A stretch of 64,000 nt of DNA, taken from contig CAWINE010000002.1 of NCBI GenBank assembly GCA_963837315.1, forward strand, positions 458,505 through 522,504. Direction: 5' to 3'. Below are positions 14,237-62,964 of this stretch, in pieces. The translations under genes were made by a program, and so were the position numbers. This DNA comes from an uncultured Chloroflexia bacterium. Its GTDB lineage: Bacteria > Chloroflexota > Chloroflexia > QHBQ01 > JADMIH01. The notes beneath the pieces were generated by a model. The model worked only from the letters and a program-made list of their open reading frames with translations. It was not told the origin of the DNA and made no database searches. Numbering within the stretch: position 1 is the first letter of the stretch; the number at the start of each line of letters is the position of its first letter.

Positions 14237-14263
14237 CTTTGTTCCTCCTCTTTGAGGACCTTT

Positions 14264-14335
14264 GAATGTGGAATGTGGAATGCAGAATGCGGAATATCGT
14301 TTTTATTCCGCATTCTGCATTCCACATTCTGCATT
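14264..14335. terminator. Long hairpin built from heptamer words (TGGAATG/CAGAATG), downstream of 14342..14941
   Basis: ATGTGGAATGCAGAATGCGGAATA tcgtttt TATTCCGCATTCTGCATTCCACAT gives a perfect stem of about 24 bp. There is no clear U-tract. Confidence 0.5.
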
Positions 14336-14341
14336 TGACAC

Positions 14342-14957: not shown

Positions 14958-15059
14958 GAATTGCGGATTGCGGATTGCGGATTACCAAAAACGTGTCGAA
15001 CTCTTGGCGATCTTGGCGTTGAAAGTTAATCCGCAATCCGCAATCCACAATCCGCAATC
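14958..15059. repeat. Inverted heptamer arrays (ATTGCGG x3 ... CCGCAAT x4) around a CTTGGCG core
   Basis: GAATTGCGGATTGCGGATTGCGGATTA ... TAATCCGCAATCCGCAATCCACAATCCGCAATC. The centre contains CTTGGCGATCTTGGCGTTGAAA. Confidence 0.9.
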
Positions 15060-18844: not shown

Positions 18845-20107
18845 ATGGCTGATGCCAATAATCGAGGGTCCGGTTTGCCGCCGGGAGTGGTTGATATGCT
18901 CTGGCGGAAGGCGGGCGAGATGCAGGCGGGTATGGTGGACTTCGCCCGGCGGCTCGTCCAGATTCCCAGCTTGCCGGGCCAGGAAGGGGGAGTTGCGACG
19001 CTGGTCGCGGAAGAGATGAAGCGGCTGGGCTACGACGAGGTACGGATTGACCGCACGGGCAACGTGATAGGTAGGATCCAGGCTACCGGGCCTGCGTCCG
19101 CCGCCGGCTCCGGTAACGTCAGGCGGCGGAGCATCATGTTCAACACGCATATGGACCAGGTCGACGTGGGCGACCACTCGCGCTGGCCTCACCCTCCTTT
19201 TGCCGCCGAAGTGGTGGGCGACGAAATCTGGGGCCGGGGTACGAGCGACCTGAAGGGCGCGCTTGCTTGCCACGTATATTCGGGGGCTTTGCTCAAGGCG
19301 GTGGGCGAACCCATTCCCAACGACGTATACGTGACAGGCGTCGTGCAGGAAGAAATAGGGGGCCATGGCGCGGCCATGCTGGCAAGCGAGCTCCAGACCG
19401 ACGTGGTTGTGGTCGGCGAGCCTTCGCACAACCGCCTCGCCCTGGGACACCGGGGCCGCTTCGAGATCCATGTCATCATCACGGGGAAATCGGTACATGC
19501 CAGCGTACCAGCTACGGGTGTAAATCCGTTGTATTCGATGGCGCGCTTTCTTCTGGGGCTCGAAACACTGACTTTCCAACCCGACCCTCAACACCCTGCG
19601 CTCGGCCCAACGTCGGTCGCGCCAACATTGATCTCGACTGACCAGGTGAGCGCTAACGTTGTGCCAGGCGAGTGCAAGGTGGTGCTTGATATACGCAATC
19701 CGCCTGGCGATGAGCCCAACACAATCCTCGGGAGGATAAATGGGATACTCGCAACTTCTCTGACTGATGGAGCCACCGGGGTAGCCGAAATACCCCCCAT
19801 AACGATGACCAGCTACACGGGCGTCACCGAAACTTACGACATCCCGGCTGTTCCGTTCGGCATCTCTGAGGATAGCCCGCTTGTCATGAGCGCCAATGCC
19901 CTGCTCGATCAGGCTCTCAGGCGCAAGGTAGAGACCCAGCTCTGGCGCTTCGCCACCGATGCCGGCCATTTCGCAGCCCACGGTATGCAAGTCATAGGCT
20001 TCGGACCAGGCTACGAGGAGGTAATCCATACGGTAAACGAAAGAATCTCCATACCTCTTATGACCGAATGCATGGTAGCCAATGCCGCCCTTGCGCTCGG
20101 GCTGTGA
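18845..20107 (+). CDS. M20-family metallopeptidase/deacylase (ArgE/DapE/YgeY-like)
   Basis: FNTHMDQVDVGD...WGRGTSDLKGALA plus GVVQEEIGGHGA. Confidence 0.85.
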   Translation: MADANNRGSGLPPGVVDMLWRKAGEMQAGMVDFARRLVQIPSLPGQEGGVATLVAEEMKRLGYDEVRIDRTGNVIGRIQATGPASAAGSGNVRRRSIMFNTHMDQVDVGDHSRWPHPPFAAEVVGDEIWGRGTSDLKGALACHVYSGALLKAVGEPIPNDVYVTGVVQEEIGGHGAAMLASELQTDVVVVGEPSHNRLALGHRGRFEIHVIITGKSVHASVPATGVNPLYSMARFLLGLETLTFQPDPQHPALGPTSVAPTLISTDQVSANVVPGECKVVLDIRNPPGDEPNTILGRINGILATSLTDGATGVAEIPPITMTSYTGVTETYDIPAVPFGISEDSPLVMSANALLDQALRRKVETQLWRFATDAGHFAAHGMQVIGFGPGYEEVIHTVNERISIPLMTECMVANAALALGL

Positions 20108-20117
20108 GGGACGATAT

Positions 20118-20333
20118 GTGAAGCGTGAAGCGTAAAAGGTAAAACGTAACCGCCAAGACGCCAAGTTCCGCCAAGGGCCGCCAAGGTTTCTGTGAGTTTA
20201 AACCCAAAAGAATCCTCTGTGATCTCTGTGGACTTTGTGATTCAAACCCACAAAAACCTTCATGACCTTGGTGTCTTGGTGGTTCAAACCGTAGAATCCT
20301 TGGCGTCTTGGCGTCTTGGCGTTGAAAAAACGC
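20118..20333. repeat. Composite modular spacer element with imperfect terminal inverted CCAAGACG arrays
   Basis: GTGAAGC x2 and GTAAAAG words come first. CCGCCAAGACGCCAAG... lies at 20150..20186. Three internal units each contain a TTYAAACC...AATCC core. CCTTGGCGTCTTGGCGTCTTGGCG lies at 20298..20321. Confidence 0.85.
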
Positions 20334-20355: not shown

Positions 20356-20986
20356 ATGAGACTTGATCTTGATACCGAAATTCGTTTCCCCAATGGCGTG
20401 CGTGCAGGGATATTGCAGAAGGTGATAGTGGCAGACACAGGGCACGTCGACAGCGTGGTCATGTCTACGGACGAATTGGTTTCGCGAAACCTCATCGTGC
20501 CGGTCAGCAGCCTGTCGGAAGGGCCTGGGGACGTGCTTAACATCAACCTGACGCCGGACCAGGTGAGCGACCTGCCCGATTACAACGAAGAGTTGGTTCC
20601 CGCTGCACCCGAAGGCTGGGAGTGGAGCGAGGACCCGCTTCCTGGGGCCGACGTCTTCCCGGGCACCCTTTACGATCCCGGGATGATGCCGGTTACCGAG
20701 GCGGGTAACATCCCCGAAGGGTCGATAACTATCAGCCAGGGCACCGAGGTTTGGTGCGAAGGCGAGCGCTGGGGGGTCGTGGACGAGATCTTGCTTGATG
20801 ACTCGGGGAATGTGGCCGCTTTCGTGGGCCGGCCCGACAATGTGGAGGAGCACGACCGCATCATTCCGATAGACCTGGTCAGCGAATATGGCCCTGATGC
20901 CGTTACCCTTAAGTTGCACTCTCCAGGACCTACCGAACTACACCGAAGAGATAACCGACGAACTGGAAGAACCCGACGCCGAATAG
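20356..20986 (+). pseudogene. Two-domain PRC-barrel-like protein, one frameshift
   Basis: The two halves are similar (GILQKVIVADTGHVDSVVMS and WGVVDEILLDDSGNVAAFV). The end LQDLPNYTEEITDELEEPDAE, parallel to DQVSDLPDYNEELVP in the first half, is readable only after a 1-nt shift near 20920. Confidence 0.55.
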
Positions 20987-31380: not shown

Positions 31381-31480
31381 GTCAGTTGTCAGTTGTCAGT
31401 TGTCAGTTGTCAGTAGACGGTGGGCAGTGGGCAGTCGACCTTCGTCGTCTACTGACAACTGACAACTGACAACTGACAAC
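31381..31480. repeat. Long hairpin of inverted TTGTCAG arrays
   Basis: GTCAGTTGTCAG x4-5 then TAGACG on the left, and CGTCTA then CTGACAA x4 on the right. The loop contains GGGCAGT x2. Confidence 0.9.
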
Positions 31481-31488
31481 TACGTATG

Positions 31489-32011
31489 TCACCTATGTGC
31501 TCTGTGCCTGCGCCGTGTTCTCGAGCTATGACCGCCGTCCTCTTCATCTTTAGCGAGAACGCTGATCGTACCGTCCACTTCGAGGGTTGCCTTGCCGATC
31601 TGCGAGATGCGGTCCAATCTCGTGCTCGCGCGCTGCCATCAGCAGCTCATCCATGTCGACGCCTTCGTGCTTCATATGGTCGTAAGAATATGTGGCCGTC
31701 CTGCACCAGCATGCTCGGCTCACCTTCCAGCCACTTCCTTACAAACGGTACTCTCGCAACCAGGTTCGATAGGAGCCCAGTTCGCTGTAAGCAGCGTGGC
31801 CGCCGACACGATGCCACCCGTTAGTGAGGTATCCGGACCGGTCATGGCGTTCTGCACCGCGTTGCTCAGGGTCAGGATCAGCACCAGGTCGAAGGGGGTC
31901 ATCTGCCCAAGCTCGCGCTTTCCAAAGAAGCGCAGACCCGAACACAACGACCAGGTAGACGATAAAGGTCCTGAGCACGATCTCGAGCAGCATTGTGCTT
32001 ATCTCAATCAT
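31489..32011 (-). pseudogene. DUF421/YetF-family membrane protein, at least 4 frameshifts
   Basis: The pieces are MIEISTMLLEIVLRTFIVYLVVVFG, LRFFGKRELGQMTPFDLVLILTLSNAVQNAM, LVARVPFVRKWLEGEPSMLVQDGHIFL, DHMKHEGVDMDELLMAAREH and RISQIGKATLEVDGTISVL. They lie in successive frames. Confidence 0.6.
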
Positions 32012-32038
32012 TCCGCGTTACAACGTCCTCCTACGCGT

Positions 32039-32143
32039 ACCAGTGACCAGTGACCAGTGACCCGTTTCGTTTCTTCGTCGGTCGTTGCTCGTCGATCGTC
32101 CGTCCTGACAACTGCACAACTGACAACTGATAACCGACAACTG
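32039..32143. repeat. Heptamer-word spacer (GTGACCA x3, TCGT-rich centre, TGACAAC x4)
   Basis: Read directly. Confidence 0.85.
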
Positions 32144-33251: not shown

Positions 33252-33267
33252 AGCTAGCTCCTGTACA

Positions 33268-33330
33268 AGAAATGAGAAATGAGATATGAGAACCTAGCGC
33301 ACTTCTCATGTCTCATTTCTCATTTCTCAC
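33268..33330. repeat. Hairpin of inverted GAAATGA arrays
   Basis: AGAAATGAGAAATGAGATATGAGAA ... TTCTCATGTCTCATTTCTCATTTCT. The right arm touches the stop codon of the upstream gene. Confidence 0.9.
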
Positions 33331-34739
33331 TTCTTCTCCACCACCATCGTCGGCACTACCGAGCCTGTGCCCGCGGTTACGTTGAGGAGGGCAGCTGACG
33401 ATAGCCTGGTCAGCACGCCCTGGGTATCCGAGCCGAATACGAATGGATCGAGGTCGGCGGTGAGGTCGCGGAAGCTGACCCCGTGCGTCGGGTCGTAATA
33501 CGGGTACGACTCCTGGTCCAGGTGAACGGCCCACTGGACCACGAAGGGGCTGGCAAGCGCTTCCTTGATGGCCCGCTGCCATTCGTCCTCATTCGACGCC
33601 CAGCCAATGGTGACGCCCTTTCCCGCCGTACTCGTCGTTCGGCTTCAACACCAGCCGCTCACGGTTTTCCGAAATGAAAGGAATAAGGTCGATTTGCCGG
33701 TCGTTGAAGGTGGTATGCCCCTCCGCGACTTTGCGCGTCCAGGGGATATGGCGGTGGATTATGTCAAGCTCATGGGCACTGAAGAGATGGGCGTTGGCGT
33801 CGTCGTGCAGCAGCCCGAAGCTCATCTTCTTGTGCAGCAGCTTGGCGCGGAACGAGTTGATGACGCACACCGCGCCCGCTTCGTAAGCGTCAAGGGTTGC
33901 TTTCGCTGCCTCGGGCTTCTCAAGCAGCTCACTGGTAAGCACTCGCTTGTAGTAGATGTCGATCACGAAATCGCCGTCGCGCAGCCTGCCGTCTTTGAAC
34001 TCGAGCCGCTCAGGCGCGGTTATAAGCACATTCAAGCCTTTCGAGTGGAAGTACTGCTCGAAAAGCTCGAACTCGGTGGAAGTCGCCACATCCTCCCAAT
34101 CCACGATCGCGATATTGGGCTGCTCGTTGAAGTTGCTCGCGCCCCTGTTGGCCCGAAACTCCCGCCAGACGTCCTCGATAGCCTGCATGAAGCGGTCGCG
34201 GGCATACAGCGGCCTGGACCCTGTACCCGCTCTTCGCCTGCCATTCTTTCATGACAGGCAATTCCTGGAATACCTCGGCAAGCACGTCTTCGTAAGCTAT
34301 GGCAGCGGGCGATTCGGCGTTCATCTCCACAAAGCGCCAGTCGCGCTCCGACCAGAACGAGTTGAGGCGCGCGCTCGGGCGAAGGCTCCTCGAAGCCTGG
34401 ATCGACCATAACGAGATGGCGCTCGGTTGGCGTCAGATCAAGCTGCGCGAGCAGGTTCTCGTCGTGCAAGGCGGCCCGCCGAAGCTTTATCATGGCCGAC
34501 GCGAGCGTACCAACCACATCTTTTATGACCGAGTATTGCCCGGCGGTGACGAAGTGCGGTCTCAAATACCGGCTAAACGGCTCGCCACGGAACACCAGCA
34601 GACGCTCTTCGCTCAACCGAGCCAGCATCTCCTGAGAATCGGCAGCCACCCGGGGATTGCCTGCCAGAAACTCGTGATAATCTTCAATAGCGGGGTGCGC
34701 GCTCTCCGCCTCAATACTCGCATCTGGAACAAAGCTCAT
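33327..34739 (-). pseudogene. Glutathionylspermidine-synthase-like (pre-ATP-grasp) amidoligase, 3 frameshifts
   Basis: RLNSFWSERDWRFVEMNAESPAAIAY has the RxDF...LE.NA.sP layout. IAIVDWEDVATSTEFELF, VINSFRAKLLHKKMSF and LVLKPNDEYGGKGV are also present. Shifts lie near 34365, 34212 and 33603. The exact subfamily is uncertain. Confidence 0.6.
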
Positions 34740-34784
34740 TGCACACCTCTTGCTGTTGCTGCTTGGACAAACGTTTTTCTTTCA

Positions 34785-34984
34785 CCGCCAAGACGCCAAG
34801 ATCCGCCAAGATCGCCAAGGTTTTTATTGTTTTTACCACAAAGACACGAAGATCACGAAGGTCACGAAGGTCACGAAGGTCACAGGATATTATTGTTTTG
34901 AATAACAGAGTACACAGAGGATTATTATGGTTATAATACCCATGAGAACCTTGGCGATCTTGGCGGATCTTGGCGTCTTGGCGG
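34785..34984. repeat. 200-bp modular element with perfect 36-bp terminal inverted repeats
   Basis: CCGCCAAGACGCCAAGATCCGCCAAGATCGCCAAGG at 34785..34820 is the exact reverse complement of 34949..34984. The interior holds three units, each an AT-rich core (GGWTTNTTATNGTTNT) plus a CACGAAG/CACAGAG word array. Confidence 0.9.
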
Positions 34985-36061
34985 TTATCGTTTTTCGTTT
35001 TTCGTTTTTCGTTTTACGCCTTCCCGCTCACCTTTTTTCGCCTCCTGGGCGGCGCCTGCCACGTCCTCGTGGGCGAATTCGGTCCAATCCTTGATGGGGG
35101 TGCCCATGGGCGGAGGGGTCGAGTTGAGGAAGCTATCCCAGCGGTAGTTTGCGCCTGGAGTATAACCGTTAAGCGCGCGGTCGATTACGAGGTCTGACAT
35201 ATTCTCCACCACCCATTCGAAATAGCTGGGTGTGATCGAATGGTAGTCCATATCGGGGGCGGGGTTCAGCCAGTCGATCGCGTAGGGGATGTTGTCGCGC
35301 ACGGCAAACTCTACGGTGTCCATGTCGTAGCCGAGGCTGCTGGTAAGGGTGATCGCGTCCCGCACGATCCTGTCGTGCAACTCTTCACCGAAGAAATGGG
35401 CCGGGTCTTCCACGACGTAGCGTAGGTGGAACGGGTTGCCAGGCTCGTACCTGATTACTTTGATATTCTTCTGCCCCAGGCAGATGCAGCGGGCATATTT
35501 ATCGAACTCGATGCCCTCCTGCAAAATCATCCCAAGCTCGCCCGTCTGGTCGAAGCACCAGACCAGCTCGTCAAGATTGTGCGCCTTGTAGACGTTCTTC
35601 CAGCCCCCTCCCCAGAATGGCTTGAGAAAGCATGGAAAGCCCACATATTCGGAGATCGATTTCCAATCGAGAGGGTATTGCAGGTTACGCAACGATTCGG
35701 AAACCACGCCCTCAACGTACGATTTCTGAGGCAGCACGATGGTCCTGGGCACAGCCACACCCTGCTTGGTCGCCACACATGCCTCAAAGAATTTGTCGTC
35801 GGCGGCCCACCAGAAGGGGTTGTTTATGACCACACAGCCGTCCAACACCGCTTTCTTGAGATAGCCCCGGTAGTATGGTATCTCGTGCGAGATTCGGTCC
35901 ACGATCACGGCGTAAGGGATAGTCTCGTCCATGCGGGTGCCGCCCAACCGGCAGAACTCGGCGCGCACGCCCATATTCTTTGATTTCACACGGTCTATGA
36001 AGGCGTGTGGAAATGTGTTCTCCCGACCCACCAGCAAACCAACAATCTTCTCTTCAGCCAT
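34985..36061 (-). CDS. ATP-grasp domain protein
   Basis: The start is set at MAEEKIVGLLVG (ATG 36061). The ATP-grasp layout includes GFPCFLKPFWGGGWKNVYKAHN, MILQEGIEFDKYARC and VEFAVRDNIPYAIDWLNPAPD. The last 8 codons are encoded by a CGTTTTT heptamer array. Confidence 0.7.
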   Translation of the reverse strand: MAEEKIVGLLVGRENTFPHAFIDRVKSKNMGVRAEFCRLGGTRMDETIPYAVIVDRISHEIPYYRGYLKKAVLDGCVVINNPFWWAADDKFFEACVATKQGVAVPRTIVLPQKSYVEGVVSESLRNLQYPLDWKSISEYVGFPCFLKPFWGGGWKNVYKAHNLDELVWCFDQTGELGMILQEGIEFDKYARCICLGQKNIKVIRYEPGNPFHLRYVVEDPAHFFGEELHDRIVRDAITLTSSLGYDMDTVEFAVRDNIPYAIDWLNPAPDMDYHSITPSYFEWVVENMSDLVIDRALNGYTPGANYRWDSFLNSTPPPMGTPIKDWTEFAHEDVAGAAQEAKKGEREGVKRKTKNEKR

Positions 36062-36792
36062 ACAATCCCCCTTTTCACCAGAGATACTCTTAACACCATC
36101 AACTTCCACCAGGGCCAATCGTGCCATGCCCCGCCCCATAAATCGAGGTTGTTGGGAACGGCCTTGTCCCACAGCGCACGGGATAATGCCTCGGTCGAGC
36201 CACGGGAAATATCTTCCGAGCCCACCGGCAGGATGATCTCCTGTTGTCTCATTCTCGACAGGTACCAGTCGTCGTGAAGGTTGGGCACATATTCGAGGGG
36301 AGAATTGAAATAGACCTCCGTGTCGTACCCCCCTCTCGTCAGGAACTCCAGCGAATAGGCCCCGCTCATAGCCAGTATCCGCCGCACCCTATCGGGGTGC
36401 CTGAAAGCCAAATTAATCGCGTGATAAGCCCCGAACGACGCTCCTGCCAGGTTTAGATCGATATCTACCCTCCCGTTCCTCTCTCGGAAAAAAGGGATAA
36501 CCTCATACAGAAGATATTGCTCGTACTGGTTATGGCGCTGTGCCCTATCGTGGGGTGAGATGCCCCGGTTGTACCATGACTTGCCGTCAATGGCGTCCAC
36601 ACAAACCATTTGTAAGGCGCCGCTGTCGAACCTTTCGGAGAGAGTGCCGATTAACCAGAATTCTTCGTTCTGGTAGAAGTGGCCCAAGGAGGTAGGGAAG
36701 GCGATGATGGGACGTCCCCCGGTCCCGAATAATAAAAGCTCCATCTCTCGATTGAGATGGGGGCTATACCATTTATGGTATTCGCGATGCAT
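35995..36792 (-). CDS. Esterase-family alpha/beta hydrolase (putative esterase, PF00756-like)
   Basis: The start is set at MHREYHKWYSPHL, with GGGAG upstream. Also present are LLFGTGGRPIIAFPTS, the elbow LAGASFGAYHA and AWHDWPWW. The 3' end overlaps the next gene by 67 nt and may hide a frameshift. Confidence 0.7.
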   Translation of the reverse strand: MHREYHKWYSPHLNREMELLLFGTGGRPIIAFPTSLGHFYQNEEFWLIGTLSERFDSGALQMVCVDAIDGKSWYNRGISPHDRAQRHNQYEQYLLYEVIPFFRERNGRVDIDLNLAGASFGAYHAINLAFRHPDRVRRILAMSGAYSLEFLTRGGYDTEVYFNSPLEYVPNLHDDWYLSRMRQQEIILPVGSEDISRGSTEALSRALWDKAVPNNLDLWGGAWHDWPWWKLMVLRVSLVKRGIVWLKRRLLVCWWVGRTHFHTPS

Positions 36793-38235: not shown

Positions 38236-39253
38236 ATGCAAGTACCATCTAACACACAGTCCTTCTACGACACCCTCTTCAACGCCGACTTCATGCGGAA
38301 GCTGGAGCGGTTGTCACTGGTCAGCCGCAAGCTGAAAGCAGGGCGGATGAAAGGCGAGCGCCGCAGCCCCAAGCGCGGGCAGTCGGTCGAGTTCGCTGAT
38401 TATCGCAATTACACACACGGTGACGATTTGCGCCGGGTCGACTGGAACGCTTACGCTCGAATGGAGCGCCTTTTCATCAAGCTCTTTCAGGAAGAGGAGG
38501 ATCTTACAGTTCACTTGCTGCTCGATGCGAGCAAGTCGATGGATTGGGGCGACCCGAACGATATCACCCTTACGGCACCGGTAGCTCCGGTCGATTCTGG
38601 AGGTGCGTGCGATCGGGGGGGTGGTGGCTCCTGCACCTGGCACGAACACTCACGACCAGAATAAGCTGGTCTATGCCAGGCGAATGGCAGCGGCGCTCGG
38701 ATATATTACCCTCTCGAACCTTGATAGGCTGAGCCTCACCGCTTTCAGTCAGGCCGGGTTGCAGCGATTTTCGGCGGTGCGAGGGAAGGGACACGCGGTG
38801 TCGCTCTTGCGCTTCATCGCGGGGGTAAAGGCGGAGGGCACGACAAACCTCGATCTCATGCTGCGCCAGTACGCAAGCCAGGCACGCTACCCCGGCCTCC
38901 TCTTCGTGCTCAGCGATTTGCTTGTGGAAGGCGGCGGCATAGAGGGTCTGAAGGCTTTGCAGGCCGCGGGCCATGAGGTGAACGTGCTGCATATACTGGC
39001 CCCGGCCGAGATCCACCCCGAGCTGGCCTTGATTGGCGATCTTCGCCTCAAAGATATAGAGACGGGCGCGACCCAGGAGGTGTCAATAGATGGCGGCATC
39101 CTCGACCTCTATCGCGAGAAGTTCGAGGCATGGCAGTCCGAGATCGAGGAGTTCTGCCGCCGCCGAGGCATCAACTACATGCAGATAACAACCGACCAGC
39201 CCTTCGAGGACCTGGTGCTTCACTACCTGCGCAGGCGGGGAATACTGACCTGA
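38236..39253 (+). pseudogene. DUF58 domain protein, frameshift at a G7 run
   Basis: GERRSPKRGQSVEFADYRNYTHGDDLRRVDWNAYARMERLFIKLFQEEED lies in ORF 38236..38664. KLVYARRMAAALGYITLSNLDRLSL lies in ORF 38603..39253. The frames change around GGGGGGG at 38614..38620. Confidence 0.8.
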
Positions 39254-39303
39254 ATTCTTAATTTTGAATTCTGAGTTAATTTAGAATTCAAAATTAAGAA
39301 TTC
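39252..39303. terminator. Perfect 21-bp AT-rich hairpin overlapping the DUF58 stop codon
   Basis: GAATTCTTAATTTTGAATTCT gagttaattt AGAATTCAAAATTAAGAATTC. Confidence 0.6.
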
Positions 39304-40516: not shown

Positions 40517-42496
40517 TTATGCTTGTGAGGCTGTGGTATTAGTACCAGTGGGCAGTGAGCAGTGGGCAGTGGGCAGCATGCCCACTGCCCATCCGTGCGT
40601 CACTGGCTCACTGCCCACTGGACTCGTACTCCCGCCTACAACTTCCCGTGTCGCTAGCTCTTCGAGGTCGTCGGTTGGGGGCAATTCTTCCAGGGGAAGA
40701 CCGGCGGCGCTCTTTGTGTAAAGGCGATAATAGAGGCCGGCATGCGCCAGCAGCTCGCGGTGGGTGCCTATCTCCACCAGGCGACCGGCTTCGATGACGG
40801 CGATTTTGTCGGCGCGCTCCACGGTGGTGAGTCGATGGGCAATGATAAGAGTGGTACGCCCCTTCATCAGCCTGTCGAGCGCGTCGCGCACCAGCCGCTC
40901 GCTCTCATTGTCGAGCGACGACGTGGCTTCGTCCAGTATCAGGATGCGAGGGTCACGCAGGATGGCGCGGGCGATGGCCACTCGCTGGCGCTGCCCGCCG
41001 GACAGCTTTACCCCACGCTCGCCGACAATGCTCCGGTAGCCATCCGGGAAGTCGATAATGAAGTTATGAGCGTTGGCTGCGCGCGCAGCGTCCTCGACTT
41101 CGGCCTCGGTGGCGTCCAGGCGGCCGTAGGCGATGTTGTCGTATATTGTGCCGCCGAATAACTGCGGGTCCTGTGGAACGATAGCGATGGCGTCGCGCAA
41201 ACTGTTCATTGTAAGGTCCCGCACGTCCTGGCCGTCAACGAGCACAGCACCATCCGCCACATCGTAGAAGCGCGGCACCAGGCTGGCAAGGGTCGTCTTG
41301 CCAGCGCCGCTTGGCCCAACCAGGGCCATGACGGTTCCCTCCTCAATCTTGAGCGATAACTCCTTGAGTACGTCCGGGCCGTTCACGTAATGGAAAGTGA
41401 TATCGCGTAGCTCAACTTCGCCACGGGCCGGAGCCGGCAGAGGCACCGCGCCCGGCGAATCCTTGATATCGGGCTCGGTGTCGAGGATCTCGAAGAGCCT
41501 GTGAGCCGCGCCGCTTGCCTCCTGAAACTGGGCGTACACCCCGGTGAGAGCGCTGATTGGAGCGGTTGCCATGATTATGTAAAGTGGAAGTATGAATAAC
41601 TGGCCGGGAGAAAGGTTGCCGTTCAGCACTTCGTTCCCGCCGAACCACATGATACCGGCCAGCGCGGCGAAGCTGATCAGGGTGATGAACGAGATGAAGA
41701 CGGAGCGCGTGCGGATGCGCATGAGGCCCACATTGAACGACTCTTCCACGGCGCTGCCATAGCGCCCGATCTCGTAATCTTCCCGCCCGAAGGCCTTGAC
41801 AACACGTGGTGCGGTCAGCGTTTCCTCAAGCACGGTTGTAGCGACGCCGAGGGCCGCCTGCGCTCTCTCCGACATCCCCCGCAGGCGCCTACCAAAGAGT
41901 ATGCCCGTAAGCATTACCGGCGGTACCACCACGAGCACCAGCGCTATCAGCCGCCAATCGATGAGGATGATCATGGTCAAACCGCCCACCAGGGTAAGCA
42001 CCTGGCCGAGCGGGCCGATCAGGTTGTTGGTGAGGCCGGCCTGCACCACAGTGACGTCGTTGCTGAGGCGCGAGGTAAGCTCTCCCACCCGCTGGTTATC
42101 GTAGAAACCGAGCGAGAGGCGCTGAAGGTGAGTGAAGACGCTCTTACGCACGTCGGCCACCAGCCGCTCGCCTGTATAAGAGATGAGATACGTTTGTCCG
42201 AAGTTGAACACAGCCTGTACCAGGAAAACGCCCACAAGCACCAGAGCGCTGGCGGTCATCATTCCCACATCCTTGTAGGTGATGGCGCTATCCACGATAC
42301 GCTGCAAGAGCAAGGGGAAAGAAAGCTGCAGCAAAGTGGATACTGCCAGGCACACGGCCGATACAATCAGCAATTTCCAGTAGGGGCGGGCAAGACGGAT
42401 GAGGCGAGCCAGCGTGGCGCGGTCAGGCGGACGAGCGTGGTCCTCGTCGTTGTCCTTGGCGCGCCCTCGCCTGTAAGAGCTTGGGCGAACTATCAA
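40517..42496 (-). CDS. ABC exporter, fused permease/ATPase (MsbA/ABCB-like)
   Basis: 659 aa with a six-TM domain, Walker A GPSGAGKTT, signature LSGGQRQR and Walker B ILILDEATS. The C-terminal tail of about 60 aa runs into a repeat hairpin. Confidence 0.9.
   Translation of the reverse strand: MIVRPSSYRRGRAKDNDEDHARPPDRATLARLIRLARPYWKLLIVSAVCLAVSTLLQLSFPLLLQRIVDSAITYKDVGMMTASALVLVGVFLVQAVFNFGQTYLISYTGERLVADVRKSVFTHLQRLSLGFYDNQRVGELTSRLSNDVTVVQAGLTNNLIGPLGQVLTLVGGLTMIILIDWRLIALVLVVVPPVMLTGILFGRRLRGMSERAQAALGVATTVLEETLTAPRVVKAFGREDYEIGRYGSAVEESFNVGLMRIRTRSVFISFITLISFAALAGIMWFGGNEVLNGNLSPGQLFILPLYIIMATAPISALTGVYAQFQEASGAAHRLFEILDTEPDIKDSPGAVPLPAPARGEVELRDITFHYVNGPDVLKELSLKIEEGTVMALVGPSGAGKTTLASLVPRFYDVADGAVLVDGQDVRDLTMNSLRDAIAIVPQDPQLFGGTIYDNIAYGRLDATEAEVEDAARAANAHNFIIDFPDGYRSIVGERGVKLSGGQRQRVAIARAILRDPRILILDEATSSLDNESERLVRDALDRLMKGRTTLIIAHRLTTVERADKIAVIEAGRLVEIGTHRELLAHAGLYYRLYTKSAAGLPLEELPPTDDLEELATREVVGGSTSPVGSEPVTHGWAVGMLPTAHCSLPTGTNTTASQA
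40545..40621. repeat. Inverted GGGCAGT heptamer arrays centred on GCATGC, inside the 3' end of the ABC ORF
   Basis: CCAGTGGGCAGTGAGCAGTGGGCAGTGGGCAGC atg CCCACTGCCC...CTCACTGCCCACTGG. Confidence 0.85.
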
Positions 42497-42627: not shown

Positions 42628-42649
42628 AGGATCAGACACGGTAAAGCGA

Positions 42650-42745
42650 AAGAGGGGGTGCAGGGGCGCTCCCCTGCCGGGGCCGGGGGTGTCCCCCGAA
42701 ACTTCCTATTCCCTAATATCCCTCACGAAAATCCACTAGGGGCTG
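42650..42745 (+). repeat. GC-rich dispersed element, copy B
   Basis: GGGGGTGCAGGGGCGCTCCCCTGCCGGGGCCGGGGGTGTCCCCCGAAACTTCCTATTCCCTAATATC... Confidence 0.9.
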
Positions 42746-42751
42746 GCGCAG

Positions 42752-42847
42752 GATCGGGGGTGCAGGGGCGCTCCCCTGCCGGGGCCGGGGGTGTCCCCGA
42801 AACTCCCTATTCCCCAATATCTTTCATGAACATGCACCAGGGGCTAG
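42752..42847 (+). repeat. GC-rich dispersed element, copy C (tandem to B)
   Basis: Near-identical to copy B over about 95 nt. Confidence 0.9.
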
Positions 42848-42908
42848 TGACCGGTGACCGGTGACCAGGCGACGATCATCTACTGACAACTGACAACTGA
42901 CAACTTGG
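42848..42908. repeat. Heptamer-word array (GTGACCG x3, CTGACAA x3)
   Basis: Read directly. Confidence 0.85.
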
Positions 42909-42911
42909 TCA

Positions 42912-48697: not shown

Positions 48698-49525
48698 ATG
48701 AAGCGAAATATCCGCAATACAATTTTGGTAGCGTTCGGGTTTTTGCTGGGACTATGCTACGCCATTCGCCTGGGGCACCATTGCCTCGCAGGCTCAGGGC
48801 TTCCGGCAATTGCCAGACCTTCCCCCAAACCGGCTATACGGTCTGCGGCAAGTTCCTCACGTACTGGCAGCAGCACGGCGGCCTCGCCCAGCAAGGCTAT
48901 CCCTATCTCGGAAGAGTTTGTAGAAACAAGCGACCTGAACGGCAAGCCTTACACAGTGCAATATTTCGAGCGCGCCGTGTTCGAGATGCACCCTGAAAAC
49001 CAGCCGCCCAACGACGTGGAGCTATCGCAGCTTGGCACCTTCCTCGGCAAGGAAAACTATACCCAGGGCTTCCCCACGACAGCAGGCCAGATACCCTTCT
49101 ACGAGAATCAGACCGACCCGGTAAAGGCCCTCAAGTCGTACTATAACGCCATCAATCGCAAGGAATACGAGCGGGCTTACGGCTACTTCAATGGCGCGCC
49201 CAACCCCGCACCCAGTACCGCCCCGCCGTACAGCCAGTTCGTGCAGGGCTACGCCGACACTACTTTCGTCACCCTCGCGGTAGGCAAGGTTGTGTCAGAC
49301 GCAGGGGCAGGCCAGATCTATGCTACCTTCCCGGCAGTGGTCACAGCCACCCACACCGATAACAGCACGCACGTCTACTCAGGCTGCTACACAATGCACA
49401 GGGTCAACTCCGGCATCTCACAAGACCCCAACGACGTGCTCTGGCATATCAACACGGCCAAACTGAGCGAAGTACCCGCCAACAGCAACGTCGACCAGTT
49501 GCTCGCGCAGACATGTGCGCCGTGA
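48698..49525 (+). pseudogene. Secreted protein with one FPQTG/YFERAVFE module, 2 frameshifts
   Basis: Signal-like MKRNIRNTILVAFGFLLGLCYA. The segment NCQTFPQTGYTVCGKFLTYWQQHGGLAQQGYP lies in the frame of ORF 48658..48996. The protein then returns to ISEEFVETSDLNGKPYTVQYFERAVFEMHPEN. Confidence 0.6.
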
Positions 49526-49712
49526 TGGGCGACGAAGGACGAAGGACGAACATATTGTTCAACGCCAAGACGCCAAGACGCCAAGGATTCTACGGTTTGA
49601 ACCACAAAGGCACGAAGAGCACAAAGGTCTTTATTGTTCTGAATCACAGAGATCACAAAGGTTATCAATGGTCACTGGTCAACTGACAACTGACAAACAA
49701 CAACTACGACAG
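49526..49712. repeat. Composite modular spacer (GACGAAG x3, CGCCAAGA x3, core units, CTGACAA x2)
   Basis: It has the same architecture and cores (GGATTCTACGGTTTGAAC, GGTCTTTATTGTTCTGAAT) as 20118..20333 and 34785..34984. Confidence 0.85.
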
Positions 49713-49714
49713 AA

Positions 49715-51465
49715 TTGAGTATGAAGAAGCTGACGAGAGGCGGTGCTATCAGGTTAACGCTGCTGTTATGCTTCTTCATACTCGCCCTGAACAAGGATCA
49801 AACCACGGGGGCCGCGCCAACGCTTACGGCGAAGGTGTCGGCCCCTGTTCTGTATTGGCAGGCGGGCCCGGCATCCAGAAGTCGGCGAGCATGGCGGGGC
49901 ACCTGATGGTCTACACGAGCTGTGTTGCGGGCAACTGCGACGTGCTCGCGCTCGACCTGGCCACCGGCAAGGTGACTCCTATAGCCGCACAGCCATGGAA
50001 CGAGCAGCAGCCGGACACCGACGGCCAGCGGGTGGTCTGGCAGGATGGCCGCAGCACACCGGCACCAGCGCAGACAAAAGCACCGACAATCTCACTCAAC
50101 GACTTCGATATCTACGGGGCGAACCTGGACGATCTCAAGCCATACCAGCTTACAGGCGCAAAGACAAGAGCAGAACCACCCTGTCGTGTGGGGCAATATA
50201 GCGGCCTGGGCCGATTTCCGTGATGCCCAGACCCCACAGGACCAACAAGCCGGCAACATTTACCTCTACGATATCCCGGCAGGCAAAGAAACCGCGATTG
50301 CCACTGCCCGCAGCGCTCAGGTGCGCCCTGTCACCAACGGCAGCGTGGTCGTTTGGGTAGACTATCGCAACGAGCCTGACCCAAACGGCACAAACTCCGA
50401 CATTTACGCCTACGACATCGCAAGCGGGCAGGAGTTTGCTATCACCACGGCCCCCGGCACGCAGACCGACCCCGCAATCTCCGGCAACATCGTCGTGTGG
50501 GCCGATTACCGTAAGTCGGCGGACGAATTCCGACATTTACGGCTACGATTTGGCCACCAAAAAGAGAGTTCCTCATCACCGACGCGCCCGGCAGCCAGGT
50601 GAGGCCGGCAATCTGGGGCAACCTCGTCGTCTGGACCGACTTTCGCAACGAGCCGGACAAAGTCAACGGCACCAACTCCGATATCTACGCCTATGACCTG
50701 AACACAAAGCAGGAGTTCCCTGTATTCGTCGGGCCAGGACGCCAGGACAACCCCAAAACCGCGTCGGGCGTGATCGCCTGGGAGGATAGCACAAAGGGCA
50801 ACAGCGACGTGGACATCATGGGCGCGACGGTGAGCGGCATCACGCTGACCGCGCCGCCCTGCCCCCCACCGATATTGCCGGGGAGCGGCAGCCGCTTCTT
50901 CCCTGAGACCGGGCCAAACGGTCACAGGCATCTTCCTCGATTACTGGAACCAGAACGGCGGGCTGGCGCAGCAAGGCTTCCCGATCTCAGGCGTCATGAC
51001 CGAGACGAGCGACCTCAATGGCAAAACCTACCTGGTGCAATACTTCGAGCGCGCGGTCTTCGAATACCACCCCGAAAACCCACCGCAAACGCCAGGTGCT
51101 GCTGTCCCAGTTGGGCACTTTCCGCTTGAGAGAAAAATATCCCAATGGCCCTCCCCTTGTCCTACGCACGCCCCTCGACCCAAACTCGCTTTTCTTCTCC
51201 CGAGACCGGCTACACAGTGTCAGGCAACTTCCTAACATACTGGCAGCAGCACGGCGGTCTCGCCCAGCTGGGCTACCCTATCTCCGGCCTCTTCACAGAA
51301 GTCAGCGACCTGAACGGCAAGCCTTACACCGTCCAGTACTTCGAGCGAGCCGTCTTCGAATACCACGCCGAAAATGCGCCGCCCTACGACGTGCTGCTCT
51401 CCCAGCTTGGCACTTTCCGGTACAAGGCTAAATACGGGGGGCGAGTAGTTGTCAGTTGTCAGTAG
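49715..51465 (+). pseudogene. Secreted PD40/TolB-like beta-propeller repeat protein with two C-terminal FPETG/YFERAVFE modules, at least 7 frameshifts
   Basis: Signal MSMKKLTRGGAIRLTLLLCFFILAL. Repeats of the type NSDIYAYDIASGQEFAITTAPGTQTDPAISGNIVVWADYR are spread over all three frames. It is a paralog of 51719..53450. Confidence 0.65.
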
Positions 51466-51575
51466 ACCGGTGACCGGGGGCTAGGGACTAGGGGCTAGAC
51501 CTACAGTAACCTCGTGCACTCTATGCCGCCGTGCTCTTGTTCAGAACAATGAAACCTTGGCGGCTTGGCGTTGAA
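51446..51575. repeat. Heptamer-word and core spacer (TTGTCAG, GGTGACC, GGGCTAG, TTCAGAACAATGAAACC, CTTGGCG)
   Basis: Read directly. It shares the junction CTTGGCGTTGAAAAA with 20318 and 15016. Confidence 0.8.
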
Positions 51576-51718
51576 AAACCGTCGCCGTACCAGCGTTGCG
51601 ATCACAGAGGTTTTGCACATCTTTTAGCCTCAACCATCTCCGGCTGGTATATTATAGGCATCTGTAGAACAGACTATCCCTGGCCCTGCAGAAAAGGAGC
51701 ATCACGAATTGGTGTGGC

Positions 51719-53450
51719 TTGATAAACAAGGATGTCAGACAGCATATCAGGTGGCTGCTACTGCTAGCGGTAGCGGTAGGTATGTCGCTGCCTGCGCTGA
51801 CAATGGCCCGGCCACTGTTGCAGACTGGGCCTTCCATCTCGCCTCCTTCGGTGCTGGCGGGAGACGGCAAAACCAACAGTGCCAGCCCAAGCGCCTCCGG
51901 CAACGTCATGGTGTACAGCGATTGCTCCAGCGGAGCTTGCAATATCTCGATGGTCAACCTGACAACCAAACAGGCCGCGCCCGTCACCAAAGCCGCCTAT
52001 AATCAGTTCAACCCCGTTACAGACGGCACGACCGTGGTCTGGCAGGATGGGCGCAACTCTACCAACACCGACACCACCGACTATACGAACAATCTCGACC
52101 TTTACGCGGCTAACCTGAACGACAAACAGGAGTTCCGGGTTTCCAGTGGCCCCCAACTGGAGGGGCGGCCAAGCGTCGCGGGCAATATAATTACGTGGGC
52201 CGACTACAGAGACGCCAAAAGTAAGAACGATCCCAACGCGGGCGACATCTACATGTTCGACCTGTCGACGCGCCAGGAAACGCAGATTACCCACCTGCCA
52301 GGCTGCTCAGACGCGACCGGTAACAAATGGCAGCGTGATCGTGTGGGTCGATTTCCGCAACGAGCCCGACCCGAACGGCTTCAACGGCGACATCTACGCT
52401 TACGATATCGCCTCCAAACAGGAGTTTCCCATCACCACCGCGCCCGACCTCCAGACCGATCCGGCCATCTACGGCAATATTGTGGTCTGGCAGGATTATC
52501 GCAACGCGAAGGATGTAAACGACTATAACGCCGATATCTACGGCTACGATCTCTCCACAAAGCAGGAGTTTGCCATCACTACCGCCGCGGGCAGACAGGC
52601 AAAGCCCACTGTAGCGGGCAACCTCGTAGCATGGGTCGACTACCGCAACGAAACTGACCAGTCCGACAATACGGGCAGCGACATCTACGCCTACGACCTT
52701 GCGAGCAAACATGAGTTCCCGGTCTACCTGGGCGCGGGCACGCAAGACGCGCCCACGATAGGCGGCACCACGGTAATTTACGAGACCAACCCGGATGTGA
52801 AGGGCGGGGGCGTCTGGAGCATCAACGGTGTGACGGTGAGCGGCGTGCAGGGCGGAGCCATCCGGCCTATGGACCCTCCGGCGCAGCTTCCAGGCTCGGG
52901 GTCGCAGACCTTTCCACAAACAGGCAAAACAATGTCAGGCGTCTTCATGGACTACTGGAACCAGAATGGCGGGCTGGCGCAGCAAGGCTACCCTATCTCC
53001 GATGTCATGGGGGAAATCTCAGACCTCGATGGCAAGCCTTATACCGTCCAGTACTTCGAGCGCGCCGTCTTCGAGTACCACCCTCAGAACCAGCCTCCCT
53101 ACAACGTGCTTCTATCCCAGCTTGGCACTTTCCGCTACAAGCAGAAATATCCCAACGGCGCTCCGGGCCAGAAGCCCGACCAGACAAATGGGCAATTGTT
53201 CCCGCAGACCGGCCACTGGGTGGGCGGCAAGTTCCTCCAGTACTGGCAGTCGCATGGCGGGTTAGCCCAGCAAGGCTACCCTATCTCGGACGAGTTCACC
53301 GAGGTGTCGGATCTGAACGGGCAGCCCTATCTGGTGCAGTATTTCGAGAGGGCAGTGTTCGAGTACCACCCTGACAACCAGCCTCCAAACGACGTATTGC
53401 TGTCCCAGCTCGGCACTTTCCAGTACAAGGCAAAGTACGGAGGGCAATAA
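51719..53450 (+). pseudogene. Secreted PD40/TolB-like beta-propeller repeat protein with two C-terminal FPQTG/YFERAVFE modules, one frameshift
   Basis: ORFs 51719..52528 and 52335..53450 join near 52300. There are about 7 repeats (DIYAYDIASKQEFPITTAPDLQTDPAIYGNIVVWQDYRN). Two copies follow of FPQTG...W...GGLAQQGYPISD...YxVQYFERAVFEYHP. Confidence 0.7.
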
Positions 53451-58828: not shown

Positions 58829-59033
58829 GGGAACAGAGGATTATGGGGGACACCCCCAAACCCCCGGCAGGGGAGCGCTCCTGCACCCCCTCTTTACTGG
58901 GAACAGAGCATTATGGGGACACCCCAAACCCCCGGCAGGGAGACCCTTGCGCCCCCTTCCCAACTTGGAGAATGGAGGGATTTTGGGGACACCCCCAACC
59001 CCCGGCAGGGGAGCGCTCCTGGACTCCCCTTGC
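58829..59033 (-). repeat. GC-rich dispersed element, copies D, E and F in tandem (reverse orientation)
   Basis: Three units of about 65-70 nt, each containing GGGGACACCCC(C)AAACCCCCGGCAGGGGAGCGCTCCTGCACCCCC or a close variant. Confidence 0.9.
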
Positions 59034-62865: not shown

Positions 62866-62946
62866 TGCTTACTGCTTAGGCTGGGGGCTAGGGGTCAGTA
62901 GGACCACGAAGGAGCAGTAAGCAGTAAGCTAGCCCCTGACCCCTAC
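62866..62946. repeat. Heptamer-word spacer (TACTGCT, GGGGCTA, GGGTCAG then AGCAGTA, CCCTGAC)
   Basis: It uses the complementary word pairs seen at 861..967, arranged A' B' ... A B. Confidence 0.8.
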
Positions 62947-62964
62947 CTCGTCCGTCCCTCCTTT

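Follow-up and report, generated by a model that had tools for sequence, protein, structure and literature searches.

Four intergenic spacers in a 64-kb stretch of DNA from an uncultured Chloroflexia bacterium (contig CAWINE010000002.1; hereafter the window) are built of short tandem words behind AT-rich cores (spacer 1, 20118..20333; spacer 2, 34785..34984; spacer 3, 49526..49712; spacer 4, 51446..51575). What kind of element are they, and where does it come from? We compared these spacers with DNA loci read from other genomes (given below as L-numbers). The outer unit of the spacers recurs across phyla, and two such units facing each other enclose small genes of the GxxExxY family (PF13366) in other genomes. 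The window spacers probably hold gene-less, partly decayed, chained copies of the "arm" of this cross-phylum hairpin cassette. They have the look of miniature relatives, empty and fast-changing, of a widespread, apparently undescribed selfish cassette, and we rated them as hairpin cassettes outside rRNA genes that are intervening sequence (IVS)-like or miniature inverted-repeat transposable element (MITE)-like.

Unit grammar of the window spacers

Spacers throughout the window (GC about 57%) are packed with tandem 7-mers, often as inverted arrays (83 rows of Tandem Repeats Finder, TRF, output). The original prediction had singled out four of them as core-plus-word elements; this content was present in all four, enriched far above shuffles, and we found a fifth small copy at 15003-15029. 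The family is real, dispersed and non-coding, and it has no coding capacity in the window.

The spacers are tiled end to end by units of one core and its words, and the "outer array" of the original prediction is itself one such unit. The words follow the pattern C-R-C-N-R-A-G with a period of 8-10 nt. A T-rich core ending in TCAA, TAAC, TCAC, TTAC, GAAC or GAAT stands before every word array, and each array gives way to G(A/T)T, with which the next core begins. The pair CGCCAAG-N1-3-CGCCAAG occurs 15 times in the window (0.00 expected from 100 dinucleotide shuffles), and arrays of at least two generic words C[AG]C[ACG][AG]AG occur 14 times against 0.44 in shuffles, with 12 of the 14 inside these spacers. 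The 3' end of the core, KTTYTGAAYCAC, was found five times with at most one mismatch, versus 1.06 expected. Thirteen cores from the window and three relatives aligned with a mean column identity of 73% and the consensus AAGG-TTTTTATnGGTTTGAAT-CACAnAG. The recurrent junction CTTGGCGTTGAAA was recovered as predicted, although it starts at 15012, 20315 and 51564 and not at 15016, 20318 and 51562. We also considered the core/word junction as a DnaA-box, sigma-54, boxA, tRNA T-arm or CsrA site, and dropped these by eye, as each fits only some units. The units and their flanks are as follows.

15003..15029 (-): solo unit, core TTAACTTTCAA with CGCCAAG x2; inverted arrays of the heptamer ATTGCGG enclose it (14960-15059)
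20118..20150 (+): spacer 1 left flank, heptamers GTGAAGC/GTAAAAG that lead into ...GTAAC, the core of the left arm
20151..20185 (+): spacer 1 left arm, CGCCAAG x4 with inter-word spacers A/TTC/GGC
20186..20214 (-): spacer 1 unit 4, core GATTCTTTTGGGTTTAAACT with the single word CACAGAA, at the centre of the hairpin loop
20215..20257 (-): spacer 1 unit 3, core GTTTTTGTGGGTTTGAAT (20240-20257) with CACAAAG/CACAGAG x3 (20215-20239)
20258..20298 (-): spacer 1 unit 2, core GATTCTACGGTTTGAAC (20282-20298) with CACCAAG x2 and GTCATGAAG (20258-20281)
20299..20333 (-): spacer 1 unit 1 (right arm), core GCGTTTTTTCAA (20322-20333) with CGCCAAG x3 (20299-20321)
34773..34819 (+): spacer 2 unit 1 (left arm), core GTTTTTCTTTCAC with CGCCAAG x4; L249 lacks this arm at the orthologous position
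34820..34885 (+): spacer 2 unit 2, core GTTTTTATTGTTTTTAC with CACAAAG, CACGAAG x4 and CACAG
34886..34949 (+): spacer 2 units 3-4, core GATATTATTGTTTTGAATA with ACAGAG/CACAGAG, then core-like GATTATTATGGTTATAATACCCATGAGAAC
34950..35017 (-): spacer 2 right arm, CGCCAAG x4 (34950-34983) that is exactly reverse-complementary to the left arm, with core GATAAC and heptamers of TCGTTTT behind it
49531..49585 (+): spacer 3 flank and unit 1, GACGAAG heptamers, then core ATATTGTTCAA with CGCCAAG x3
49586..49626 (+): spacer 3 unit 2, core GATTCTACGGTTTGAAC (identical in spacer 1 and L121) with CACAAAG/CACGAAG/CACAAAG
49627..49698 (+): spacer 3 unit 3, core GTCTTTATTGTTCTGAAT with CACAGAG/CACAAAG, then core-like GTTATCAATGG into CAACTGA heptamers, without an inverted arm
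51447-51499: spacer 4 flank, unrelated heptamers
51539..51580 (-): spacer 4, unit 1 core GGTTTTTCAA with CGCCAAG x2 and unit 2 core GTTTCATTGTTCTGAAC with decayed words

Co-directional genes flank all spacers that carry units; spacer 1, for example, lies between an M20 peptidase gene (18845-20107, +) and a PRC-barrel gene that starts at 20356 (+). The best-named homologues of this peptidase come from metagenome-assembled genomes of Chloroflexia/Chloroflexota; no identical protein is on record. The unit map bears out the earlier statement that both orientations relative to the flanking genes occur. Spacers 1 and 2 are two-armed hairpins with further forward-facing units in the loop, whereas the remaining three of the five copies (spacer 3, spacer 4 and 15003) are one-armed chains. 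The inverted outer array ascribed to all four spacers is thus present in spacers 1 and 2 and lacking in spacers 3 and 4, and terminal inverted repeats cannot define the family. In spacer 2 the inverted repeat spans 52 nt (34784-34835 / 34934-34985) at 90% complementarity; the perfect 36-bp terminal repeat reported earlier lies within its perfect inner stretch, and its left arm is missing in L249.

A multi-unit module has been copied between loci within this genome. Spacers 1 (minus strand) and 3 (plus strand) hold the same unit order, and a three-unit module of 106 nt is common to both, ungapped and 84% identical (20224-20329 complementary to 49555-49660). The similarity ends at the TTCAA core.

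We considered whether the spacers encode a structured non-coding RNA or a cis-regulatory leader, riboswitch-like or a small RNA, with a conserved fold. Spacers 1 and 2 form long hairpins and fold far better than shuffles (z = -5.0 and -11.1), and the inter-word spacers co-vary between the arms of a pair, both of which speak for such an RNA. Spacer 3, built of the same units, has no fold (z = -0.17). Rfam gave no match at the gathering threshold for the window or for 18 loci with canonical hairpins, and only chance-level matches for two spacers at a relaxed E<=10; scans of the spacers for sigma-70 promoters and intrinsic terminators returned nothing above shuffles. The units also lie in both orientations relative to the flanking genes, no adjacent gene family recurs in the 120 loci described below, and the pairing has no sense-strand G-U preference. 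We regard a conserved RNA as highly improbable, and the common fold behind the structured-RNA alternative of the original prediction is unsupported.

Distribution of the unit across phyla

We scanned one genome per species (185,579 species) for CGCCAAG x3 and obtained at least 120 matches. Those listed, to which the counts in this section refer, came from Planctomycetota, Verrucomicrobiota, Lentisphaerota, Myxococcota (many of them Sorangium), Chloroflexota, Cyanobacteria, Acidobacteriota, Nitrospinota, Armatimonadota and several proteobacterial orders, at least nine phyla in all; a minority were coding period-9 repeats in actinomycetes. Cyanobacterial carriers of word units include Stigonema, Nostoc, Calothrix, Brasilonema and Oscillatoria, and IMG/VR contigs carry some copies. 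The same grammar governs arrays of CGCAGAG, CACAGAG, CACGAAG, CGCAAAG and CGCGAAG in many phyla, and these are sometimes nested inside CGCCAAG hairpins.

Apart from the coding repeats of actinomycetes, conservation extends beyond the search pattern. Positions -6 to -1, which lie outside it, read (T/A)TGAAC over 162 arrays (AAC in 83/162, TTGAAC in 24, ATGAAC in 12), and positions -14 to -7 are purine-rich. The modal array is an in-frame 24 nt with the layout 8+9+7 (70/162). Inverted pairs are almost always arranged with the cores out and the words in (27 '+-' versus 2 '-+'), and the loops of the 31 tabulated arm pairs range from 13 to about 450 nt. The inter-word spacers were the same in both arms of 29 of 61 pairs, compared with 21% for shuffled partners, and 0/2000 shuffles reached the observed value. 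Orientation analysis based on open reading frames (ORFs) was unreliable in high-GC genomes, with 49 clusters falling inside spurious ORFs. When we applied the prefix test to 12 window arrays, the words fitted in 12/12 and a TTGAAY/CTGAAT prefix was present in 5/12.

An all-against-all ORF comparison of the 120 loci revealed no recurrent neighbour, no protein family being present in more than eight loci, and no transposase recurred near them. Apart from the unit, most of the listed loci are not repeat-rich (3.6 arrays per 64 kb versus 14 in the window). A metagenome scan for the unit-2 core GGATTCTAYGGTTTGAAYCAC returned a single match, by chance inside a coding region.

Two individual loci are of note in their own right. 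In a Dehalococcoidia metagenome-assembled genome (L055, 1389-1900), five tandem repeats of about 115 bp each combine GGTTGAAC, CGCCAAG words and the parS-like palindrome TGTTTCACGTGAAAC. In Brasilonema bromeliae (L120, 2150-2400), a single unit (TTTAACGAAC with CGCCAAG x3) lies inside an apparently split antitoxin gene, just upstream of a PIN-domain gene, and may represent an insertion into coding sequence.

GxxExxY genes between the arms

At two loci, L079 (Planctomycetota) and L088 (Sorangium), the arms stand 400-446 nt apart and enclose one ORF. Both ORFs belong to the GxxExxY family (TIGR04256 at 1.8e-38 and 2.9e-41, and also PF13366). The L088 ORF starts within the arm, so that ATG AAC CGC CAA GAC GCC AAG GAC GCC AAG is read as MNRQDAKDAK. 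Every further GxxExxY locus with readable DNA (L245, L246/L247, L248, L251, L254) has the same layout: a 5' arm that contains the start codon, the ORF, and inverted words with GTTC/GTTAA 1-20 nt past the stop codon. The gene in the cassette encodes a PD-(D/E)XK-like protein of about 125 aa, host genes closely abut the cassettes on both sides, and at L008 two GxxExxY genes stand amid many word hairpins.

The word-encoded leader was also evident in the proteins. The 120 best homologues (Sorangium, other Myxococcota, Planctomycetota, Acidobacteriota, many metagenomes) include 118 whose core is recognisable, and 101 of these have the leader; variants such as MNHQDTKDTTK correspond to CACCAAG words. 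Among diverse representatives of the family (21,570 clusters at 50% identity, E<=0.001), the leader is present in 21/143. No solved structure matched GxxExxY by sequence. These results demonstrate a physical association between the word arms and GxxExxY genes, and we infer that the window units descend from, or propagate with, GxxExxY cassettes.

Gene-less hairpins of Sorangium retain both end types, ...GAGAAATGAAC and ...TCGAAC. At L014, L031, L044, L072, L075 and L088 such hairpins lie in a conserved element of about 170 nt with CTAG at both ends, which would fit an IS630-type TA target. The cassette of L251, found on contigs from three samples (L251-L253), has CACCAAG words in its 5' arm and CTTGGCG in its 3' arm, and lies directly downstream of an IS66-family transposase gene.

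The tandem words could instead be arrays of binding sites for a cold-shock protein, S1, Rho or another protein that binds single-stranded nucleic acid, with several copies loading onto consecutive words of 7-10 nt. The variable 8-10-nt period would argue against phased binding to double-stranded DNA and for single-strand recognition, hairpin copies would expose their inner word arrays in the loop, and MacGregor (2015) proposed such a role for another set of cross-phylum heptamers, the TAACTGA repeats of Beggiatoaceae (PMC4679880). The outer words, however, are base-paired in the hairpin forms, the orientation relative to transcription is inconsistent, and binding leaves the bracketing of GxxExxY genes unexplained. 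We consider this explanation improbable.

Orthologous spacers in relatives

We compared spacers 1 and 2 with their orthologous positions in related genomes. Spacer 1 in L121 (M20 peptidase 91% identical) has conserved cores between different flanking heptamers, its right arm holds one CTTGGCG where the window has three, and CTTGGTG words have changed to CTTTGTG in concert. In a more distant relative (L122, 77%) the position holds an unrelated 81-bp spacer, in the P0010 contig (79%) 21 bp, and L122 has almost no tandem repeats in 21 kb. At spacer 2, the reverse-unit chain is retained in L249 (flanking ATP-grasp-like protein 94% identical), with CTTCGTG x6 versus x4 in the window and mixed CTTKGYG words; the heptamers differ on both sides. 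Since the left CGCCAAG arm is absent in L249, the perfect inverted repeat of spacer 2 in the window is a recent inverted duplication. In L250 (84%) an unrelated heptamer hairpin stands in place of spacer 2.

Close relatives thus differ by in-place slippage, concerted word change and arm creation, and distant ones by complete replacement. The original prediction had opposed gradual in-situ microsatellite change to presence/absence polymorphism; the outcome is mixed, with the former between close relatives and with the element missing or wholly replaced in distant ones.

At another position between orthologous genes (14237-14341, compared with L122 1009-1085), the relative has a GC-rich terminator hairpin with a T-run and the window has a GAATGYG heptamer hairpin without a T-run. 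It thus seems that hairpins built of repeats take the place of ordinary intergenic ones.

The window copies evolve fast and in place. Under pure microsatellite evolution by replication slippage, as in the STRR (short tandemly repeated repetitive) heptamers of cyanobacteria, nothing would move, the cores would be decayed arrays and the likeness to GxxExxY leaders would be incidental. Intergenic 7-mer arrays indeed pack the whole window, word copy number and concerted word changes differ at the same locus between close relatives, the flanking heptamers have fully turned over between relatives whose flanking proteins are 91-94% identical, and Chloroflexus is known to be rich in heptamer satellites (PMC6749651). 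Yet slippage does not account for the same word, (A/T)TGAAC prefix and 8+9+7 layout in at least nine phyla, for the ungapped 106-nt module in two distant spacers, or for the fixed cores-out orientation of pairs, and most cross-phylum loci are not repeat-rich. As the sole explanation, in-place microsatellite evolution is unlikely.

A classical MITE would be a deletion derivative of an insertion sequence with a DDE transposase, moved in trans by cut and paste through its terminal inverted repeats and leaving target-site duplications. The inverted outer arms of spacers 1 and 2, the CTAG-bounded, ORF-less copies of Sorangium with their fit to an IS630-type target, and the IS66 transposase that adjoins one GxxExxY cassette are consistent with this origin. 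Three of the five window copies, however, have one arm, the 94% relative lacks the perfect pair of arms in spacer 2, the window yielded no target-site duplication, the 120 loci have no recurrent transposase nearby, and the gene between the arms encodes a small PD-(D/E)XK-like protein and not a DDE enzyme. We judge a classical MITE to be quite improbable. The earlier description as a non-autonomous element is fair in that gene-carrying GxxExxY cassettes with the same arms exist; a species-specific MITE is contradicted by the recurrence of the outer unit in at least nine phyla.

Proposed origin of the window copies

We favour the reading that the window spacers are gene-less copies of the cassette arm. 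An arm consists of a short A/T-rich stretch that ends in a start-codon-like TTG or ATG followed by AAC (TTGAAC, ATGAAC, TTCAA), and continues with 2-6 tandem C-R-C-N-R-A-G words spaced 1-3 nt apart. In the complete cassette of other genomes, two facing arms surround a GxxExxY gene, with the 5' arm encoding the leader M-N-R-Q-D-A-K-D-A-K. Deletion of the gene would leave a bare hairpin. New arms arise by inverted duplication, and word slippage with concerted word mutation changes the copies in place. By analogy with the IVS of 23S rRNA, the paired arms may form a 24-38-bp stem in the transcript that is cut by RNase III, which would make insertions between co-transcribed genes tolerable. Spread could depend on a GxxExxY nuclease encoded elsewhere in the genome, or on template switching and gene conversion between arrays.

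Several observations weigh against this reading. Six-frame translation of the 64 kb, out of a contig of at least 529 kb, revealed no GxxExxY ORF, so the window elements are ORF-less; all five window copies lie between unrelated heptamer arrays, with no flanking direct repeat; and no precise empty site was recovered in the relatives compared at orthologous spacers. The CGCCAAG units of the window mostly read TTCAA, TAAC or TCAC directly before CGCC, and, having no in-frame start codon, they are divergent forms of the canonical arm (ATGAAC/TTGAAC). Inner cores of the T-rich GGATATTATTGTTTTGAAT type were seen only in the window, L121, L249 and L138, and were not found flanking a GxxExxY gene; their link to the cassette is drawn from the shared grammar and from the CACCAAG words in the 5' arm of L251. 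An RNA-level role is hypothetical, since arm pairing energies had no consistent sense-strand G-U bias in five cassettes and units occur in both orientations. The causal order may also be the opposite, with GxxExxY genes homing into pre-existing word hairpins.

A more far-reaching version of the cassette reading is conceivable, and we put it forward tentatively. The C-R-C-N-R-A-G arms might mark an unrecognised cross-phylum mobile cassette in which GxxExxY would act as a structure-specific nuclease that recognises the hairpin or cruciform of its own arms and drives their copying into other hairpins, so that gene-less hairpins and one-armed chains would be its miniature parasites. Since the start codon and leader are part of the inverted repeat, pairing of the arms might also gate translation of GxxExxY.

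Comparison with known systems

The closest analogue of the cassette is the IVS of 23S rRNA. In Coxiella, RNase III cuts the stem formed by the inverted repeats of the IVS, which also has a Shine-Dalgarno-like, AG-rich stretch and variable-copy tandem heptamers before a decaying ORF (PMC4990558). Like the IVS of Coxiella and Leptospira (S23p / four-helix-bundle ORF; PMC4990558), the cassette resembles a small selfish insert of about 430-500 nt whose inverted-repeat ends form a long stem, with an AG-rich stretch and strain-variable tandem 7-mers at the 5' arm beside the ORF start. In both, the loop holds a small, decaying ORF of unknown function, ORF-less hairpin versions exist, and a sporadic distribution points to horizontal transfer. 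The stems span 24-38 bp, and a stem of this type encloses a GxxExxY ORF at L079, L088, L245, L246, L248, L251 and L254. The cassettes differ from the IVS in lying in intergenic spacers of protein-coding genes and not in helix 25 or 45 of 23S rRNA (no rRNA was found in the window), in carrying GxxExxY (PF13366) and not S23p (PF05635), in placing the words after the start codon, where they encode the leader, and in a word sequence and (A/T)TGAAC prefix that are conserved across phyla. Excision by RNase III belongs to the 23S IVS, and for the window hairpins it is suggested by this analogy.

Cyanobacteria reportedly carry short tandemly repeated repetitive (STRR) heptamers and, in Nostoc, nested "small dispersed repeats" (SDR), as ascribed to Mazel 1990 and Elhai 2008. 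Together with the cross-phylum TAACTGA repeats of Beggiatoaceae (PMC4679880), these resemble the window repeats in being intergenic tandem 7-mers, often nested and inverted, fast-evolving and common to distant phyla with no known vector. The flanking heptamers of the window are likewise intergenic 7-nt tandem repeats whose copy number varies between relatives. The words have a period of 8-10, yet their copy number also varies between relatives; unlike STRR and TAACTGA repeats, they have the fixed C-R-C-N-R-A-G grammar, a conserved start-codon-like prefix, and a demonstrated physical association with one gene family (GxxExxY).

MITEs share with the window elements a short, non-coding, dispersed nature, inverted ends in some copies, a longer gene-carrying relative and the presence of a multi-unit module at two loci. 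A MITE would have inverted repeats at both ends of every copy, whereas two arms occur only in spacers 1 and 2. The window elements also differ in lacking target-site duplications, in ends that are not conserved as a pair, in arms made of slippage-prone tandem words, and in an associated gene that is not a known transposase.

Repetitive extragenic palindromic (REP) sequences and REPINs with their REP-associated tyrosine transposase (RAYT; Y1 HUH) offer a further parallel (PMC3116915). They too are abundant extragenic palindromes, single or as inverted doublets, with a conserved tetranucleotide at the stem foot (GTAG in REP, GAAC in the arms), and flank a single small enzyme gene. REPs are species-specific, whereas the word arms do not differ between phyla; their stems are arrays of tandem words, and they flank a PD-(D/E)XK-like gene (GxxExxY/PF13366) and not a RAYT (Y1 transposase) gene.

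The small bacterial proteins of GxxExxY/PDDEXK_3 form a very large family; in a survey of 2012 (PMC3424549) its function was given as "unknown", with "multiple transfers". Inverted arms that contain the start codon, together with gene-less arms in many phyla, give this family a concrete, testable biology as a selfish hairpin cassette. Such a cassette would link rRNA intervening sequences, cross-phylum short tandem repeats (STRR, TAACTGA) and MITE-like intergenic palindromes, which have so far been treated separately. For annotation, it accounts for odd low-complexity N-termini (MNRQDAKDAK) and spurious ORF extensions into repeats, and flags spacers that are fully turned over between genomes whose flanking proteins are still 84-94% identical. 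Chloroflexus heptamer satellites (PMC6749651), STRR-type repeats and TAACTGA repeats (PMC4679880) are already known; the arms are apparently undescribed, and no description of them was found in the full-text literature on the words, leader peptides and GxxExxY, of which coverage was incomplete.

Other repeats and open reading frames of the window

The ATP-grasp-like ORF beside spacer 2 (34985-36172, -) runs about 10 codons into the TCGTTTT heptamers (34985-35017) before its stop codon. Because homologues cover only 86-90% of it, the annotated C-terminus is probably altered or extended by the repeat.

Inverted 7-mer arrays are present in most spacers of the window. AGTTGTC arrays form perfect 36-bp inverted arms at 31384-31481, and further inverted arrays lie at 14265-14335, 33262-33340, 40546-40621 and 62884-62950, among many others. 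Modules of an array with its junction are common to distant loci: 854-886 and 42879-42911 are exact reverse complements, and 860-889 is identical to 31391-31420. We checked the small ORF region between heptamer arrays at 31486-32053 as possible cargo; the tested plus-strand ORF had no Pfam match, and by eye the minus-strand ORFs resemble a frameshifted DUF421-type membrane gene; this candidate was set aside.

A GC-rich dispersed repeat of about 60 nt (GGGGGTGCAGGGGCGCTCCCCTGCCGGGG..GGGGTGTCCCC) occurs at 2352-2420, 42649-42706, 42751-42808 and 58831-59031. It is internally palindromic, is found in both orientations with three tandem copies at 58831-59031, and has no Rfam match at the gathering threshold.

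Around spacers 3 and 4, a repeat-protein cluster (48698-49525 and 49722-53450) is broken up into ORFs that overlap, which suggests frameshifts or errors in the assembly. The cluster contains five copies of a module of about 95 aa (..GYPIS..SDLNGKPYTVQYFERAVFEYH..), and the two proteins scanned (48698-49525, 52335-53450) had no Pfam match. Finally, an AT-rich near-palindrome (TGAATTCTTAATTTTGAATTC...GAATTCAAAATTAAGAA) is located at 39250-39297, where two convergent ORFs meet.

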